From an uncultured archaeon (GTDB taxonomy: Archaea; Asgardarchaeota; Heimdallarchaeia; Heimdallarchaeales; Heimdallarchaeaceae): 64,000 nucleotides of DNA. Below, one piece after another: positions 6,197-12,938 of this stretch. The stretch's first letter is position 1. Each line of letters begins with the position of its first letter. The stretch lies in the NCBI GenBank assembly GCA_964534625.1, contig CAZHRF010000009.1, positions 12,935 through 76,934 of the forward strand. Direction: 5' to 3'. Made by a program: the position numbers and the translations under genes. Under the pieces are notes generated by a model. That model worked only from the letters and a program-made list of their open reading frames with translations. It searched no databases and was not told where the DNA came from.

Positions 6197-7276
6197 CTAT
6201 TGAGGTTTTAATGGTTTTATTTCTGTTTTAGAGACTTTTTGATGAAACAAGTAACTTTTCCATTCATTTTTACAGCTACAAGATATTGGTTGCATTAAAT
6301 ATTTTACCTTCTGAGAAATTGTAAAATTCTTTAAGGCCTCACTCACTAATTTGTCACATGTACCACAGTTATGAGCCCCTCGCTCTTTTCCTGCTGCTAC
6401 AGGTTCACAAATAACACGGAGATCAGGATGGGCCTGTTTGAGTTCCTTACACACATGTAAAAGAGACCATAACCATGGGGGTCGATAATTTCCTTCTTCA
6501 AAAAGTGTAGAAAGAAGAGTACCTCTATGGATACTAATAGAATTAATAGAAATAGTATCGATACCCAACTCAACAATTTTTTTAACACTAGTAAAAATGT
6601 CAATAATTGCATCATATTCAGAAATGAAAAGTGGTTTGAAAATAAGATAGGCCTTGATATTAGCCCCTGAAGATAATACAGCAGAAGCGGCTTGAGCAAA
6701 GTCTTCCCAAAAGAATCCTTTGTTGATAGAGTCACGTAAAATGTTGTTATTTGCACTTTCTAATCCGATGGCTATCTCAACAACTGACGGGTCAAGAAAT
6801 TGAAAAATCTTGTTGAGGATATCTTTATTCACATATTCGGGACGTGATTCTAAAACAATTTCTTGAATCTGTGGATAGAGAGAGAGTTTTTCTATTAAAG
6901 TGAGAAGAACATGTTCGGGAACTTCTTTTGGATCTAAAATACTACCACTAGTAAAGAGCTTAACAGAAAGGATTTGATCTTCAGTAAGTTTCTCTTTAAG
7001 ATGCAGCTTAAATTGGTCTATCATTTCATCAAAATTAGTCTGCTTGGGATTATCATATAAGTAACCGCAGAATGAACATCCTCCGCTCCCAGATAAAGCC
7101 CAAGAACATCCACGTGTGGGGAGGATGAATACAAGGGCTTTTGCAGCCTTAGAGCGTAAACGGTGGTCTTCAATCCACGAGATAACTTTTTTAGAATGTG
7201 AACGAGAAGATAAAGAGGACTTGCGTATCTCATTTAATATTTGTCGTAAAATAGTATTAGATTTTGATGTCATCAA
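6197..7276 (-). CDS. raSEA: Archaeosine biosynthesis radical SAM enzyme RaSEA
   Basis: TRGCSW..SGGCSFCGY (CX7CX2C), KLFTSGS, ESRPEYV, IGLES, RPPWLWS, RGAHNCGTC; directly downstream of arcS. Confidence 0.9.
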   Translation of the reverse strand: MMTSKSNTILRQILNEIRKSSLSSRSHSKKVISWIEDHRLRSKAAKALVFILPTRGCSWALSGSGGCSFCGYLYDNPKQTNFDEMIDQFKLHLKEKLTEDQILSVKLFTSGSILDPKEVPEHVLLTLIEKLSLYPQIQEIVLESRPEYVNKDILNKIFQFLDPSVVEIAIGLESANNNILRDSINKGFFWEDFAQAASAVLSSGANIKAYLIFKPLFISEYDAIIDIFTSVKKIVELGIDTISINSISIHRGTLLSTLFEEGNYRPPWLWSLLHVCKELKQAHPDLRVICEPVAAGKERGAHNCGTCDKLVSEALKNFTISQKVKYLMQPISCSCKNEWKSYLFHQKVSKTEIKPLKPQ

Positions 7277-9187
7277 TTATAAACTCCTTTTTTTACGTAT
7301 TTGGGCAGCTATACCTGAGGTCATTTTATTCATATCACAACCAGCAACAACAGCTGTACCCGTAGCTAAGACAAGATTATCTTTAGTGATCAAAATCTCA
7401 TCTAAAGGTCGAATACGAGGGTCAGCCTTGACAATACCAACAGCAAAAATGCTACTGCCTCGGATATTTGTGGTAGCAAATTCCATCTTTGCATAGGTTA
7501 AATCAATAATCTTCTGTGCGTGAGTAGGATCAAGTGTAAGAAAACCATCAGCATAACGTAAAGTAGCAATCTGTTCATTGTCAAGAAAAATTTGTAAATC
7601 GCGAGGAAACCTACCTTTAATGATAGTATCAGCAGGAAAGAGAATATCACCAACACCTTTTCCAAATTGATGATTGGCTATGGTACGTAAACGTATAATC
7701 ATATCAGAGTAAATGCGGCGTTCAGGCGTATAAGAACGGATGACGGAAGTAAGGGTTGAAGTAAGAAAATCTAACGAGTCATAACTTGTTGGATGACTAT
7801 CAGGAGAAGTATGGATGATTTCCCAATCACGTTGTTGCTTAATTGAATTAAGAACATCAGTATAACCAGAACCATGGGTGTGATTGATAATAGTAAGGTC
7901 AGAAGGGTACTTATCAAGAACAGAGAGAAGGAGATCAGATGTAAGAGAAATCTCTTCAGAACACCAATCCCCAGAAACAGGAATGTCATAGAAACGACTA
8001 GGATAAAGATCTTCTAATTCACGAGGAACGACAGAAAGAGGAGAGGTGATAATGATCTCAGAAAGTAAAGCACGATGAGATTTAACTCCTTTACGTAAAG
8101 CCCGAATAAAACGGCGATGGGAAAAAGATAGAGAATATGGTTTACGCGAAGAGCAAGGAAAAAGAATAACAATATGAGCAAAAGGATCAGGAGTGAAGAA
8201 ATCACGAATACGAGAACGAAATTCGGTTATACTAGGCCGATAGATAGATTCGTTACCAATACATTTTACAGGGGCGGAAGTAAGCAAAGGAGTACGGTTA
8301 CGTATATACGAACCATAGGAGGAATCGAAATGCTTCAAAGCAGCTGCAAACGTAACAGAATTGTGAATATCTTGTTCAACTAATGTACGAAGAGTGCCTT
8401 CTTCAAGAGCAAAATAGATACGAGAAATAGCATTTTGGAGGATGAAATTGTTGTGAGAGAAAAGATTAGGAGGATTAGAAGAACAATGAGGACAATAACA
8501 AGGAGGATGCGAATCTAAAGGATAATACCTATCTAAAGTGAGAAAATAACCAGAAGAAGGAGAAAGATAATAAGCAAAAGAATTATCGAAAAAATCAATA
8601 CCTGAATAAACAAGAAAAGAAAAATAACTAGGGGGAATAGGACCAGGAAGAAAAAGGGCAATATCAGGAGAGAGACGTTGACGGAGAGTAAAAAGACTTT
8701 GAGAAAGTTTTCGTTGATTAAAAAGGAGAGAATGAAAACCAGAAAGAAGGAAAAAAGAACAATCAGAATCTAAAACGGGATCAATAAGGGGAGAATCAAT
8801 AAAATCAATAGGGAGAGTGAAAATATGCTGAAAAAGTTTAGAATGAGAAAGAAACTGGTCAATATAACTTTCAAAGTCGGGTTTGCGGAGATCATAAGGA
8901 GTGGGAGCGGGATAAAAAGGCTGAGACGAAAGAAGAAAAGATGAAGAAAGAGATTTGGACTCTTTATTAGGAGGAAAAAACCAGTGAAGTGTGGGGGGAG
9001 AAGAAAAATCTTCACAAGAGAGAGATGGAGGGGTGGAGAGAGAAAAATAACCAGAAAATCCGTGGGGAGAAGCGGGAGGTTCAATAGATAAAAGACCAGG
9101 AGATAAAGAATAATTGGAATTAGTTTCTGATAAAATACGAGCAAAGGCTTGTTGGTAATGTGGTTGGAAGTAACGCAAGGTAATCAC
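7277..9187 (-). CDS. arcS: Archaeosine synthase subunit alpha ArcS (TgtA2) with C-terminal PUA domain; probable GTG start at 9187 (ORF track extends to 9274)
   Basis: GIDFFD, CYCPHC Zn site, PCSSRKPYSLSFSH, TSPLSVVPRELE, YDIPVSGDW, QFG..G, PUA motif ADPRIRPLDEI. Confidence 0.88.
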   Translation of the reverse strand: MITLRYFQPHYQQAFARILSETNSNYSLSPGLLSIEPPASPHGFSGYFSLSTPPSLSCEDFSSPPTLHWFFPPNKESKSLSSSFLLSSQPFYPAPTPYDLRKPDFESYIDQFLSHSKLFQHIFTLPIDFIDSPLIDPVLDSDCSFFLLSGFHSLLFNQRKLSQSLFTLRQRLSPDIALFLPGPIPPSYFSFLVYSGIDFFDNSFAYYLSPSSGYFLTLDRYYPLDSHPPCYCPHCSSNPPNLFSHNNFILQNAISRIYFALEEGTLRTLVEQDIHNSVTFAAALKHFDSSYGSYIRNRTPLLTSAPVKCIGNESIYRPSITEFRSRIRDFFTPDPFAHIVILFPCSSRKPYSLSFSHRRFIRALRKGVKSHRALLSEIIITSPLSVVPRELEDLYPSRFYDIPVSGDWCSEEISLTSDLLLSVLDKYPSDLTIINHTHGSGYTDVLNSIKQQRDWEIIHTSPDSHPTSYDSLDFLTSTLTSVIRSYTPERRIYSDMIIRLRTIANHQFGKGVGDILFPADTIIKGRFPRDLQIFLDNEQIATLRYADGFLTLDPTHAQKIIDLTYAKMEFATTNIRGSSIFAVGIVKADPRIRPLDEILITKDNLVLATGTAVVAGCDMNKMTSGIAAQIRKKRSL

Positions 9188-9285
9188 TAACTGAATAAGT
9201 ACATAACATAAAAGGAGAATTAATAAAAAGAATGTGGTAAGAAAGAAATAAGGGCATAAAGGTAGAATGTACAAGAGTAAGGAAT

Positions 9286-11531: not shown

Positions 11532-11570
11532 TAGTAAGTTTGATATTCTCTTTTTGTTATTTTTCTTAGT

Positions 11571-12938
11571 ATGTATATAGAAAACACAGCCCAATTACGC
11601 TCCTTGGCTAGAAATCCACAAGAGAAGATGATATTAACCCGTCTCCTTTCTTTGATGGAAAAAGCTTTAGATTTTGCTTCACCCGCTAATTTTCTGTCAC
11701 AATCACTTACGTTAAATAATACTCTTCTTCAAGTAAATAACACCACCTTCGATCTTAGTACTTGTGATACGTTTCATTTAATTGCGTTTGGTAAAGCTTC
11801 ACAAAAAATGACTGAATGGGTTCTTTCTTCCCTTCCTATTAACTTTGATTCAGTTCTCATTTCATCTCCTGAAGAAAAAAATGATTACATTCAAAATCTA
11901 GATAATTGCGAATTTTTCCGCGCTGGTCATCCTCTTCCTAATTGTGAAAGTGTTGCAGCTGCTGAATCTGCTCTTTGTTTACTTTCTTCTTTGTCAAAAG
12001 ACGATTTTTGTCTTCTTTTAATCTCTGGAGGGGGTTCGGCATTATTTGATGCTCCTGATCATAATATTGCTTTTTCTGATTATTCTCAAGTTCTTACAGC
12101 ATTACTTTCCTCTGGTGCATCAATCCATTCTATAAATACTGTAAGAAAACATTTCTCTAAAGTTAAAGGTGGAAAACTTGCTCAAGCCACGGATGCTACT
12201 TTGCTTTCTTTAGTTATCTCTGATGTAATTGGAGATGATCTCTCTTCCATAGCTTCTGGTCCGACTGTTCCTGATCTTTCTACCTGGGAGGATTGTTTTG
12301 CTGTATTTACAAGATATGATCTTCAAAATATTTTACCCATTTCAGTTCGATCTGTCCTAGAGAGGGGTCTGTCTGGTGAAATTATTGATACTCCATCAGA
12401 CAAATCAGCTTTTTGTCACACAAATACTTTGATCATTGGTTCTAACACTGATGTTTTAAACAGCTTACAGTCTTACATTGAAGAGTCTTCTCCGTGTTTT
12501 ATTTATGATTCCCAATTGAAGGGAGAGGCGGCAAGAGTAGGTGAGGGACTTGCTTTTGATTTATCTTCGTATGCAAAATATAATAGTTCTTCTTTTCTCC
12601 TTTATGGTGGTGAGACAACCGTTTCTTTACCTTCATCATCTTGTGGAAAAGGGGGAAGAAATCAAGAATTGGCACTATCTTTTTCCCTTAATTTAAAATC
12701 TGCTGATTACTCAATATATCTTCTGGCTTTTGGAACCGATGGTATTGATGGTAACTCAAAAGCTGCAGGAGGCTTAGTTGGCCCTTTTACGATTGATGGT
12801 ACTGAAAAAGAACATAATGCCTTAGAATCATTAAAAAAACATGATTCTAATACTTTCTTTAAACATTTTGGCGGAGAGGTTGTAACCGGAGGTACAGGCA
12901 CAAATGTTATGGATCTAGGAATATTATTCATAGTTTGA
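11571..12938 (+). CDS. Glycerate 2-kinase (MOFRL/DUF4147 family)
   Basis: GKAS, GHPLP, LISGGGSAL, KGGKL, SDVIGD, IASGPT, GGETTV, GGRNQE, TDGIDG, TGTNVMD. Confidence 0.92.
   Translation: MYIENTAQLRSLARNPQEKMILTRLLSLMEKALDFASPANFLSQSLTLNNTLLQVNNTTFDLSTCDTFHLIAFGKASQKMTEWVLSSLPINFDSVLISSPEEKNDYIQNLDNCEFFRAGHPLPNCESVAAAESALCLLSSLSKDDFCLLLISGGGSALFDAPDHNIAFSDYSQVLTALLSSGASIHSINTVRKHFSKVKGGKLAQATDATLLSLVISDVIGDDLSSIASGPTVPDLSTWEDCFAVFTRYDLQNILPISVRSVLERGLSGEIIDTPSDKSAFCHTNTLIIGSNTDVLNSLQSYIEESSPCFIYDSQLKGEAARVGEGLAFDLSSYAKYNSSSFLLYGGETTVSLPSSSCGKGGRNQELALSFSLNLKSADYSIYLLAFGTDGIDGNSKAAGGLVGPFTIDGTEKEHNALESLKKHDSNTFFKHFGGEVVTGGTGTNVMDLGILFIV

Follow-up and report, generated by a model that had tools for sequence, protein, structure and literature searches.

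Abrupt changes in strand composition are best known from DNA replication, where skew switches sign at the bacterial or archaeal oriC or terminus and where upward skew jumps and N-domains mark mammalian origins. The usual leading-strand direction of this replication skew, in both bacteria and archaea, is an excess of T over A. Animal mitochondrial DNA carries a gradient set up by strand displacement, in which the skews are driven by transitions (C→T and A→G on the exposed strand) and run in one direction. Genes can also acquire transcription-coupled asymmetry, seen as an excess of T over A and of G over C on the sense strand in mammals and as purine loading of mRNAs in prokaryotes. In eukaryotes, tRNA genes undergo transcription-associated mutagenesis, with rates raised 7- to 10-fold within ~20 to 40 bp (Thornlow et al. 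2018, PMC6130373).

We found a locus in a Heimdallarchaeaceae genome that shares features with each of these systems and differs from all of them. Our analysis of the window, meaning the whole 64,000-nt stretch of DNA that was studied, showed that a point at ~9.29 kb, between the start of the ArcS gene and tRNA-Lys(UUU), is the center of a local, mirror-symmetric substitution bias between the DNA strands (Table 1). As at replication skew switches, sign changes abruptly at silent sites regardless of gene orientation, with a single polarity and with more T than A on the strand that points outward. Unlike at those switches, the skew is one of purines against pyrimidines (C over G plus T over A) rather than G+T richness, its amplitude is far larger (~90:10), and it ranges over only 4 to 12 kb at each of dozens of sites. 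The locus resembles mitochondrial DNA in having a four-fold-site asymmetry graded with distance, there from a start of DNA synthesis with tRNA genes at or near the light-strand origin, but here the change is purine→T, bidirectional, and chromosomal. Silent-site strand asymmetry is also a feature of transcription-coupled bias, which starts at promoters, but here the orientation of resident genes is ignored, and genes pointing outward run opposite to the usual purine loading. In this genome, as in eukaryotes (PMC6130373), unusual mutation is concentrated in the flanks of tRNA genes, but here the effect spans kilobases, is strand-polar, mirror-symmetric, and of a purine→T transversion type, and comes with lower rather than higher silent divergence. 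This strand-specific mutation pattern is real and local, and it has apparently not been described before.

Table 1. Features of the skewed region and of a second flip, in window coordinates. Pyrimidine fractions are for four-fold sites.
Feature	Position	Strand	Remarks
hyp304, conserved hypothetical, outer left flank	5273–6187	+	Sense pyrimidine 0.36 vs 0.51–0.58 in orthologues
Conserved downstream partner gene of ArcS, left flank	6197–7276	-	Moderate skew, sense pyrimidine 0.67
ArcS, archaeosine synthase	7277–9274	-	Pfam DUF5591, TGT_C2, and PUA domains
Flip point, purine-rich to pyrimidine-rich on + strand	9275–9300		Cumulative purine-skew maximum at C9:22245 (window 9311); sequence read directly
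ArcS-tRNA spacer, 460 nt	9275–9734		Purine fraction 0.44; + strand already pyrimidine-leaning
tRNA-Lys(UUU)	9735–9811	-	ARAGORN; Rfam RF00005, 66 bits
T/C-rich non-coding stretch upstream of RibK	9812–10188		Purine fraction 0.36
RibK, CTP-dependent riboflavin kinase, N-terminal HTH	10189–10899	+	Pfam PF01982
RibL, FAD synthetase-like cytidylyltransferase	10896–11531	+	Pfam PF01467; pyrimidine 0.85
GckA, glycerate kinase-like	11571–12938	+	Pfam DUF4147, MOFRL; pyrimidine 0.68
Translin-family gene	12939–13589	-	Pfam PF01997; sense pyrimidine 0.29 vs 0.47–0.55 in orthologues
Right-flank tail, polyprenyl synthetase and two more genes	13808–16480	+	+ strand pyrimidine 0.62, 0.64, 0.59, 0.51; fades to baseline
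Second same-polarity flip	24500–27500		+ strand pyrimidine 0.31, 0.25, then 0.65, 0.73; switch statistic 0.33
Intron-containing tRNA-Lys(CUU), center of second flip	26299–26398	+	Rfam 57.6 bits; ARAGORN with intron option, Lys CTT

A preliminary description of this DNA had reported that the + strand is rich in purines to the left, and in pyrimidines to the right, of a switch near tRNA-Lys(UUU). The two compositions are as described: positions 8567 to 9066 (C9:21501) are the most purine-skewed 500 nt in the 3.37-Mb genome, with (R-Y)/(R+Y) = 0.484 (13,303 windows of 500 nt; SD, 0.123), and across 8501 to 9250 the + strand has a GC skew of +0.49 to +0.52 and an AT skew of +0.40 to +0.47, compared to -0.31 and -0.34 at 10001 to 10500. 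The jump, left minus right, is 0.56 over 1.5-kb flanks and ranks second in the genome (SD, 0.115). The tRNA gene is indeed nearby, but the center lies at ~9.28 to 9.30 kb, at the ArcS start and ~450 nt to the left of the tRNA. In 750-nt bins, the + strand four-fold pyrimidine fraction is 0.40, 0.40, 0.26, 0.17, 0.11, and 0.13 left of ~9.29 kb and then, going rightward, 0.91, 0.80, 0.73, 0.62, 0.76, 0.62, 0.64, 0.59, and 0.51, so that the bias is back to ~0.5 by 4 to 7 kb from the center; the genome mean of the sense-strand fraction is 0.52 (SD, 0.09). Rather than vanishing at synonymous positions, the skew peaks at four-fold sites, and it reaches non-coding DNA too. The most skewed genes are ArcS on the left (sense four-fold pyrimidine 0.87; A31, C58, G12, T225), where skew rises toward the 5' end, and RibK on the right (0.90; A8, C16, G3, T88). 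On the strand running 5' to 3' away from the center, four-fold sites are ~77% T, ~13% C, 2 to 5% G, and 6 to 7% A, compared to a genome-wide baseline of 41% T, 37% A, 12% C, and 10% G. Because of this shift from baseline, which leaves silent positions ~90% T/C on the outward strand and the partner strand purine-rich, mostly A, the substitution signature is essentially purine→T, with dyad symmetry about the center.

Both flanks had been thought to have pyrimidine-rich sense strands. This holds for ArcS, RibK, RibL, and GckA but not for hyp304 and the translin gene, and because the sense skew of these two is reversed, the asymmetry tracks the DNA strand and not the sense strand. The translin gene lies on the minus strand with an A-rich sense strand, so the + strand is still T-rich there. 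Across the genome, the sense four-fold pyrimidine fractions of neighboring genes are positively correlated when the two genes share a strand (+0.43) and negatively correlated when they diverge (-0.26) or converge (-0.20). In G004 and G007, closed genomes of relatives, the block from RibK to polyprenyl synthetase is inverted and the + strand is T-rich all the same, with seven minus-strand genes right of the center that are A-rich in the sense strand (pyrimidine 0.27 to 0.40). Flips at the G004 tRNAs at 1792627 and 2102891 are likewise independent of gene orientation.

From hyp304 to at least 43 kb, the genes follow the same order as in the relative G001, and the best matches are same-family orthologues of typical identity. 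The orthologous locus is flat in G001 and G012 and flipped in this genome and in G004/G007; the flip is missing at the orthologous loci of two genera and found in a third, and the bias is lineage specific at a conserved locus. RibK orthologues have four-fold pyrimidine fractions of 0.66 in G001, 0.53 in G012, and 0.37 in G004, whose copy is inverted. We give almost no credence to foreign DNA, an assembly chimera, or translational codon bias as the source of the skew. ArcS, RibK, and RibL do depart widely from the usual codon choice of the genome, as such sources would suggest, but the first two are excluded by the conserved synteny and also disfavored by the ordinary terminal-branch share of this genome for the flank genes (0.28 to 0.34 vs 0.23 to 0.33), and codon bias is refuted since the bias reverses with gene strand, covers non-coding DNA, and is missing from ribosomal protein (r-protein) genes.

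The bias has changed the amino acid makeup of the neighboring proteins. Purine fractions at ArcS codon positions 1, 2, and 3 are 0.43, 0.39, and 0.22, compared to 0.55 to 0.61, 0.44 to 0.47, and 0.47 to 0.51 in 11 orthologues, and the N-terminal third of the protein is 67% S, L, F, P, T, C, and Y, compared to 47 to 51%. An enrichment of S, L, F, and P (SLFP) that had been noted in ArcS, RibL, and GckA stands up against orthologues for ArcS and, to a modest degree, for GckA, but none was seen for RibL; orthologues from flat genomes are ordinary in composition. SLFP makes up 34.7% of GckA here, 28 to 32% of its counterparts from flat genomes, and 23% of those from G004/G007, whose gene is on the opposite strand with respect to the center, and the corresponding values for the translin protein are 19%, 24%, and 30 to 32%. 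These two proteins have therefore been pushed in opposite ways in this genome and in G004, where their orientation to the center differs. Together with the maximum at four-fold sites and the independence from orientation, these opposite shifts support the earlier proposal of a localized, bidirectional, strand-asymmetric process that reshapes proteins.

This flip is one of dozens. The switch statistic at gene boundaries has a skewness of +0.82 in this genome and +0.97 in G004; large switches all go from purine-rich to pyrimidine-rich on the + strand, and opposite changes are decays only. A coincidence with tRNA genes, raised as a possibility in the preliminary description, was found, as same-polarity flips in this genome and its family are enriched there. 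Since tRNA genes are heavily transcribed, one could propose that under strong outward transcription the template purines are repaired and the non-template strand stays exposed or unrepaired, with transcripts coming from tRNA read-through on one side and from divergent or ArcS-promoter transcription on the other. We consider both this process and these transcript sources possible but rather unlikely. Polarity agrees, in that purines are lost from the outward, RNA-like strand; tRNA-gene mutagenesis is known in eukaryotes; and sense pyrimidine is raised in some genes that are likely highly expressed (actin, 0.84; S-adenosylhomocysteine [SAH] hydrolase, 0.85; thermosomes, 0.67). However, transcription level is no predictor of skew, as the r-protein cluster shows next to no skew (0.55) and the thermosomes fall below ordinary enzymes such as ArcS and RibK (0.87 to 0.90), and neither does tRNA codon demand relate to flip size (rho, 0.07). 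Antisense transcription would have to outweigh sense transcription over the translin gene and hyp304, over the seven consecutive G004/G007 genes (6 kb, with bias up to 12 kb), and over four housekeeping genes at C3:46 to 49.7 kb with sense pyrimidine of 0.14 to 0.38. In addition, tRNA genes show about as strong an effect upstream (-0.064) as downstream (+0.051), the skew in the first 450 nt downstream of tRNA-Lys(UUU) is opposite in sign to that expected from read-through, the tRNA is followed on its own strand by a T5 run, read from the sequence, that would act as a terminator, and the eukaryotic effect covers tens of bases rather than kilobases (PMC6130373).

At four-fold sites, G004 and G007 have diverged by 0.166 in 11 genes with strong skew and by 0.284 in 33 genes without skew, and divergence falls as skew rises (Spearman rho, -0.41; P = 0.002). 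Because silent divergence at flips is lower, not higher (0.17 vs 0.28), extra damage is disfavored, and with it the persistent strand exposure that had been suggested for this locus. A rough two-state estimate puts A→T at ~1.2 times baseline on the outward strand and ~0.3 times on the partner strand, which resembles the template-strand repair of the transcription proposal.

Lower G004-G007 divergence at the flip centers could also mean recent exchange at a tRNA-linked hot spot (an att or fragile site) for breaks, recombination, or mobile elements, where resection and repair synthesis on both sides would bias the strands. Heimdallarchaeum mobile elements integrate at tRNA genes (PMC8813620), the kilobase decay is like the length of resection or conversion tracts, and the locus is a rearrangement breakpoint, with the inverted block in G004/G007, an extra 1-kb insert by the tRNAs in G007, and the 460-nt spacer in this genome. 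We nevertheless regard this origin as improbable. Purine loss on exposed resected DNA would be predicted to give the opposite polarity, because 5'→3' resection leaves exposed 3' tails running toward the break; models of extra damage predict silent divergence at or above baseline, and a halving was seen; and the flanks are syntenic core genes around a center without an integrase or repeat. Selection for a purine-strand/pyrimidine-strand architecture, which might for instance serve DNA structure, keep chromatin out, or insulate stable-RNA genes, would fit the finding that silent divergence is lowest where skew is strongest and that two genera whose four-fold sites are mutually saturated are flipped at the same locus. 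It is less probable still, since it would have to act on thousands of near-neutral sites at a visible cost in protein composition, G001 and G012 manage without a flip at this locus, and the smooth decay with distance suggests a graded process, not an element with boundaries.

The leading suggestion of the preliminary description was a replication origin. A canonical Orc1/Cdc6-dependent chromosomal origin would account for the bidirectional flip, the origin-like T-over-A polarity, and the AT-rich intergenic center with its inverted repeat, but it is largely refuted and very unlikely. Orc1/Cdc6 genes lie on contigs C1 and C2 and not on the contig of this window (C9), no ORB-like repeat set was found at the locus, in agreement with the earlier failure to recognize an ORB box or cdc6 gene, no motif common to the flip centers was found, and the sites are many, each with a kilobase-scale effect. 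In G004, the best Orc1 locus is not flipped and a sample of 40 x 20 kb showed no replichore-scale skew, so ordinary forks leave no trace.

The reading we favor, with a probability of about 0.4, is that DNA copying begins again and again at one fixed point and moves outward both ways, so that the ordinary input of purine damage becomes almost fully strand-polarized. The outward-pointing strand would nearly always be an exposed template, copied discontinuously, and would take nearly all purine→T mutation; its partner would nearly always be a protected template, copied continuously. Sites would then drift to a stable state in which the exposed strand carries T and the protected one A, and this drift would produce both the extreme skew and the reduced silent divergence. 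Such a start point would not be a canonical Orc1-adjacent oriC; it might be set by a stable-RNA gene, through an R-loop or the opening of its promoter, or by another feature of the locus. The T-over-A direction matches the usual leading-strand skew, which would count for a start of copying. The model works only on the assumption that forks keep a fixed direction over no more than a few kb around each site, and the decay over 4 to 12 kb is far below any inter-origin distance. Also against it, the two-state values of ~1.2 and ~0.3 times baseline are nearer to those for protection of one strand (1 and ~0 times) than to those for pure partition (2 and 0 times), G001 and G012 carry tRNA-Lys(UUU) at the locus unflipped, and only ~30% of tRNA loci in this genome exceed the 95th percentile of background.

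Several minor features of the region were also recorded. The ArcS-tRNA spacer contains no recognized gene or RNA, with Rfam matches at chance level only, and in G001, which lacks it, the tRNA is 14 bp from ArcS. The inverted repeat (17 nt; 9950 to 9966 and 9998 to 10014) lies in the non-coding DNA upstream of RibK, where a 97-amino-acid open reading frame at 9947 to 10240 matches no Pfam family and is probably not a gene. hyp304 is syntenic in every relative examined, and a Pfam search found no family for it. The gene downstream of ArcS had no Pfam match at a threshold of 1e-3 and is possibly the radical-SAM protein RaSEA; its sense four-fold pyrimidine fraction of 0.67 compares to 0.45 to 0.63 in flip-less genomes of the family and 0.72 to 0.76 in the flipped G004/G007, and its SLFP content is 30.9% vs 26.6%.

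At the junction between the genes for archaeosine synthase (ArcS) and tRNA-Lys(UUU), the + strand switches from purine rich to pyrimidine rich, with the centre of this flip at about 9.28 to 9.30 kb, near the start of ArcS and about 450 nt from the tRNA gene (positions are those of the window unless a contig is given). From 8.5 to 9.25 kb, the + strand has a GC skew of about +0.5 and an AT skew of +0.40 to +0.47, and from 10.0 to 10.5 kb both skews are about -0.3. The strand-skew switch reported in the preliminary description is thus borne out at genome scale: positions 8567-9066 have the top purine skew among the 13,303 500-nt windows of the source genome, G000 (0.484; sd 0.123), which is assembled into 120 contigs (3.37 Mb, 32% G+C), and the left-right jump at the locus ranks second genome-wide.

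The skew does not vanish at synonymous sites, a point on which the preliminary description had staked its case; it is strongest at sites free of selection on protein. The genome-wide sense composition at four-fold degenerate codon positions is 37% A, 12% C, 10% G, and 41% T, and the mean sense pyrimidine fraction of genes of at least 150 codons is 0.52 (sd 0.09). The corresponding values are 0.87 for ArcS (31 A, 58 C, 12 G, and 225 T), 0.90 for riboflavin kinase (RibK), and 0.85 for the FAD synthetase-like RibL. In 750-nt bins, the four-fold pyrimidine fraction of the + strand is 0.40, 0.40, 0.26, 0.17, 0.11, and 0.13 left of 9.3 kb and 0.91, 0.80, 0.73, 0.62, 0.76, 0.62, 0.64, 0.59, and 0.51 right of it, with the baseline regained 4 to 7 kb from the centre. 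The non-coding DNA at 9812-10188 is 64% pyrimidine. On the outward-pointing strand, which runs 5' to 3' away from the centre on either side, both flanks have the same four-fold composition (T, about 77%; C, 13 to 14%; G, 2 to 5%; A, 6 to 7%). Compared to the baseline, C is unchanged, A is down about six-fold, G is down about three-fold, and T takes up the difference, so the signature is that of purine-to-T change on the outward-pointing strand.

Features at and near the flip centre and at the second flip of the window
Feature	Positions	Strand
hyp304, conserved hypothetical	5273-6187	+
Conserved ArcS partner gene	6197-7276	-
ArcS	7277-9274	-
Antisense-frame ORF within ArcS	8770-9144	
Spacer, ArcS to tRNA-Lys(UUU)	9275-9734	
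GC hairpin	about 9641-9660	
tRNA-Lys(UUU)	9735-9811	-
97-aa ORF	9947-10240	
RibK	10189-10899	+
RibL	10896-11531	+
GckA, glycerate kinase-like	11571-12938	+
Translin-family	12939-13589	-
Polyprenyl synthetase	13808-14890	+
tRNA-Lys(CUU), intron containing	26299-26398	+

The ArcS partner gene, which neighbours ArcS in all relatives, has a Cys-rich motif near the N terminus and no Pfam match at 1e-3; it is possibly RaSEA, the radical-SAM protein that partners ArcS. The 460-nt spacer between ArcS and tRNA-Lys(UUU) contains a small GC hairpin and is absent from the same-family genome G001, which has 14 bp between the two genes. An Rfam search of the spacer for structured RNA gave only chance-level matches, and promoter and terminator scans of this region were uninformative, as they used a sigma-70 model that is not applicable to archaea. 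The 97-aa ORF is rich in F, L, and S, is without a Pfam family, and is in all likelihood spurious, a result of the T/C-rich composition of the non-coding DNA 5' of RibK; the long antisense-frame ORF within ArcS is a similar case.

We found that the asymmetry tracks the DNA strand rather than the sense strand. The sense pyrimidine fraction is 0.36 in hyp304, a + strand gene of the left flank, and 0.29 in the translin-family gene, a - strand gene of the right flank; despite these reversed sense skews, which rule out an asymmetry following each gene's transcribed strand, both genes have a + strand composition like that of their neighbours. Genome-wide, the sense four-fold pyrimidine fractions of adjacent genes correlate at +0.43 for same-strand, -0.26 for divergent, and -0.20 for convergent pairs. 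There are two closed genomes in the same family, including G004 (3,081,793 bp), whose sequence ends in a tRNA gene (3,081,723-3,081,793). Wu et al. 2022 (PMC8813620) report rotating their Ca. Heimdallarchaeum genomes in this way, with tRNA-Gly(CCC) as the last gene, and the family is therefore probably Heimdallarchaeum-like. In G004 and G007, closed relatives with the flip, the corresponding junction holds ArcS and two tRNA-Lys genes, but an inversion spans RibK through the neighbours of the polyprenyl synthetase gene. The + strand pyrimidine fractions of G004 are 0.30, 0.28, and 0.21 before the centre and 0.77, 0.73, 0.64, 0.66, 0.55, 0.66, 0.62, and 0.63 after it, and the right-flank genes, placed on the minus strand by the inversion, are sense-A-rich (0.27 to 0.38), as they are in G007. 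Opposite-strand neighbours also have opposite sense skews at the G004 flips at tRNAs 1792627 and 2102891. Translational codon bias is rejected as an explanation, since the bias reverses with gene strand, reaches non-coding DNA, and is weak in ribosomal protein genes.

A transcription-coupled mechanism would need outward antisense transcripts to prevail across several kilobases of DNA that include several housekeeping genes, and we consider it rather unlikely. Read-through predicts the opposite sign in the 450 nt directly 3' of tRNA-Lys, and flip size does not correlate with the codon demand on the tRNA (rho, 0.07). When gene identity is used purely as a proxy for expression, the sense pyrimidine fraction averages 0.55 in the ribosomal protein cluster and is 0.67 in two thermosome genes, while the ordinary enzymes ArcS and RibK reach 0.87 to 0.90; the values for SAH hydrolase and for actin, which is encoded in G000 (Pfam Actin, 5.8e-133), are 0.85 and 0.84. 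The presence of this bona fide actin places G000 among the Asgard archaea.

The preliminary description had allowed that the region might be an assembly chimera or a foreign insertion, which fails because G001 has the same gene order as the stretch between 5.3 and 43.5 kb. The order hyp304, partner gene, and ArcS is kept in all 11 same-family loci examined, and the same-family orthologues of ArcS, RibK, RibL, and GckA are 41 to 52% identical to them, much as for their neighbours; this kept synteny and these ordinary identities exclude a foreign insertion, genomic island, or chimera. The four-fold pyrimidine fraction of ArcS is 0.87 in G000 compared to 0.47 to 0.57 in same-family orthologues, and the same-family genomes G001 and G012 have tRNA-Lys(UUU) at the same junction yet lack the flip. 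The genera are about equidistant; their amino acid identity of about 50% implies saturation at silent sites, and the bias must therefore be maintained or generated within lineages. G019, which belongs to the same order but to another family, has a same-polarity flip at a tRNA (contig C68; stretch L082, 7227-7333; 0.31 and 0.40, then 0.67 and 0.81), and the phenomenon is therefore not limited to one family.

The bias also reaches protein composition. The enrichment in S, L, F, and P (SLFP) previously described for ArcS, RibL, and GckA holds for ArcS (40% in G000 versus 28 to 34% in same-family orthologues) and GckA, while RibL is not clearly enriched in G000. At alignment columns conserved among orthologues from genomes without the flip, ArcS replacements toward pyrimidine-rich codons number 39:25 in G000 and 45:12 in G004, compared to 17:17 and 7:19 in two controls without the flip. 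S, L, F, P, T, C, and Y make up 66 to 67% of the N-terminal third of ArcS, the part closest to the centre, versus 47 to 51%. The SLFP share of GckA is 34.7% in G000, where the sense strand is the pyrimidine strand, 28 to 32% in genomes without the flip, and 23% in G004 and G007, where it is the purine strand; the translin-family protein has the opposite trend (19%, 24%, and 30 to 32%, respectively). The three-point branch shares of the G000 proteins (ArcS, 0.28; RibK, 0.32; RibL, 0.34) are within the ordinary range (controls, 0.23 to 0.33), and this argues against faster protein evolution at the flip. The bias steers which replacements happen more than their number. Thus, the same enzyme is rich in S, L, F, and P in one lineage and in K, E, G, R, D, and N in another through orientation to a nearby point alone, and mutation bias here overrides codon usage and measurably alters protein composition. 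Phylogenetics is affected through compositional convergence in ArcS, and in genomes with flips the bias also affects gene calling and the use of codon usage to detect gene transfer.

To locate other flips, we scored each gene boundary by comparing the + strand four-fold deviation, averaged over the three genes after it, with the average for the three before it. In G000, this switch statistic has an sd of 0.076 and a skewness of +0.82; all large switches run from purine rich to pyrimidine rich, and the opposite changes are decays only. The largest values, 0.51 each, are at the window locus, with its tRNA 450 nt from the centre, and at C3:44.8-46.0 kb, which contains an intron-containing tRNA-Trp. 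Of 43 tRNA genes found with the Rfam tRNA model, 42 loci could be scored, and 29% exceeded the 95th and 12% the 99th background percentile (Mann-Whitney P = 1.4e-4). Deviations oriented by the tRNA are -0.064 for the first upstream gene and +0.051 and +0.055 for the first two downstream genes, so both sides are affected. Among 404 boundaries in 860 kb sampled from G004, the three highest values all fall at tRNA genes. Tested as the preliminary description advised, the coincidence of jumps with tRNA genes is an enrichment but not a rule: many tRNAs have no flip, and flips without a detected RNA gene include those at the actin promoter (C5:12.1-12.7 kb), at an Elp3 gene (C27:9.9 kb), and at C1:177 kb. 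A tRNA is neither necessary nor sufficient for a flip, and a search of 18 flip centres yielded no shared 8-mer beyond A/T-rich low-complexity words. With its four-fold switch, independence of orientation, kilobase decay, and nearby tRNA, the window locus fits a tRNA-anchored mirror-image flip.

The window has a second same-polarity flip at 24500-27500, at tRNA-Lys(CUU), with + strand four-fold pyrimidine fractions of 0.31 and 0.25, then 0.65 and 0.73; ARAGORN defaults miss intron-containing tRNAs, including this one. The Elp3-like tRNA modification gene (C27:10162-11805; L001:3163-4806) has the most extreme silent-site bias of the genome (0.95, with T at 241 of 283 four-fold sites) and directly follows the purine-rich 3' end of a same-strand gene of 2374 aa. 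The two tRNA-Lys genes of G007 (stretch L080, G007:C1:2500001-2520000), at about 16100-16215 (+) and 17284-17420 (-), are separated by an insert of about 1 kb and by eye have apparent introns at non-canonical positions, e.g., the T-arm; neither ARAGORN with its intron option nor Rfam at E <= 0.01 detected them. One-signed domains of + strand T bias, 18 to >43 kb long and of mixed gene orientation, cover C26 (a 43-kb contig with a mean bias of +0.159 throughout), C5:1-27000, and C1:1-18000. All start at contig ends and may be flanks of flips within assembly gaps.

G004 and G007, about 81 to 91% identical in aligned stretches at the locus, also allow silent divergence to be compared. Four-fold divergence at the ArcS flip is 0.078 in ArcS and 0.084 to 0.118 in the next three genes, while distal genes of the region average 0.31, and of the six flanks of three flips, five have such a dip. 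Pooled values are 0.166 for strongly skewed (n = 11), 0.219 for intermediate (n = 10), and 0.284 for unskewed (n = 33) genes, and skew correlates with divergence at a Spearman rho of -0.41 (P = 0.002, for genes that are not independent). Skewed genes are thus less diverged than unskewed ones, giving a negative test for a locally raised mutation rate, and a simple zone of local hypermutation is ruled out. Damage added to one strand is likewise rejected, since it predicts divergence at or above baseline. This dip narrows the range of mechanisms. A rough equilibrium estimate places A-to-T change at about 1.2 times baseline on the outward strand and about 0.3 times on its partner, so the skew would come mainly from sparing of one strand's purines. 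Such sparing fits a strong bias in which of the two strands serves as the exposed template for discontinuous copying, and it fits strand-specific repair as well. Selection or recurrent exchange between lineages may also lower divergence at flips; as causes of the flips themselves, we regard break or recombination processes as improbable and selection as less probable still.

The explanation that we prefer, with a probability of roughly 0.4, is a fixed start point at the centre from which DNA would be copied outward, polarising the ordinary input of purine damage between the strands. This would not be a canonical archaeal oriC, which is rejected on the lack of orc1/cdc6 on contig C9 and of an ORB-like family, the lack of replichore-scale skew, and the decay within 4 to 7 kb. 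Matches to Cdc6_C (PF09079) in G000 are confined to C1:6.8-8.0 kb, C1:57.2-58.4 kb, and C2:136.4-137.6 kb, with none on C9, the contig that holds the window (C9:12935-76934). A repeat scan of 9200-10260, not exhaustive as the ORB consensus varies between lineages, found one 17-nt inverted repeat and no ORB-like family. The strongest Orc1 locus of G004 (1.988 Mb) has no flip, and forty 20-kb samples of this closed genome gave no coherent long-range sign of skew, so there is no empirical calibration of "origin" versus "terminus" polarity. Of the earlier interpretation, the local bidirectional mutational asymmetry that reshapes proteins therefore stands, and the label of replication origin, in the canonical sense, does not.

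It is a more doubtful proposal that flips are true DNA synthesis starts in Heimdall-group archaea, dozens in number, fixed, independent of orc1, and often adjacent to tRNAs, with fork direction deterministic for only a few kilobases and the chromosome otherwise unpolarised. If flips mark the sites and the direction of DNA opening or copying, the composition of silent sites would be a free genome-wide map of that process, applicable to uncultured Asgard archaea. To our knowledge, hardly any experimental study has addressed Asgard replication and repair. Our literature search found no publication describing such flips, and the paper on closed Heimdallarchaeum genomes is without skew analysis (Wu et al. 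2022, PMC8813620).

We also observed that 39 of the 40 tRNA matches of G004 lie within 1.10-2.59 Mb, most of them within 1.77-2.33 Mb. They surround the best Orc1 gene, at 1.988 Mb, and the 16S and 23S rRNA genes, which are unlinked and lie at 1.929 Mb and 2.003 Mb, respectively. In G000, a gap of 5.5 kb separates the 16S gene (C1:12555-14034) from the 23S gene (C1:19540-22912), and an Orc1 gene is close by.
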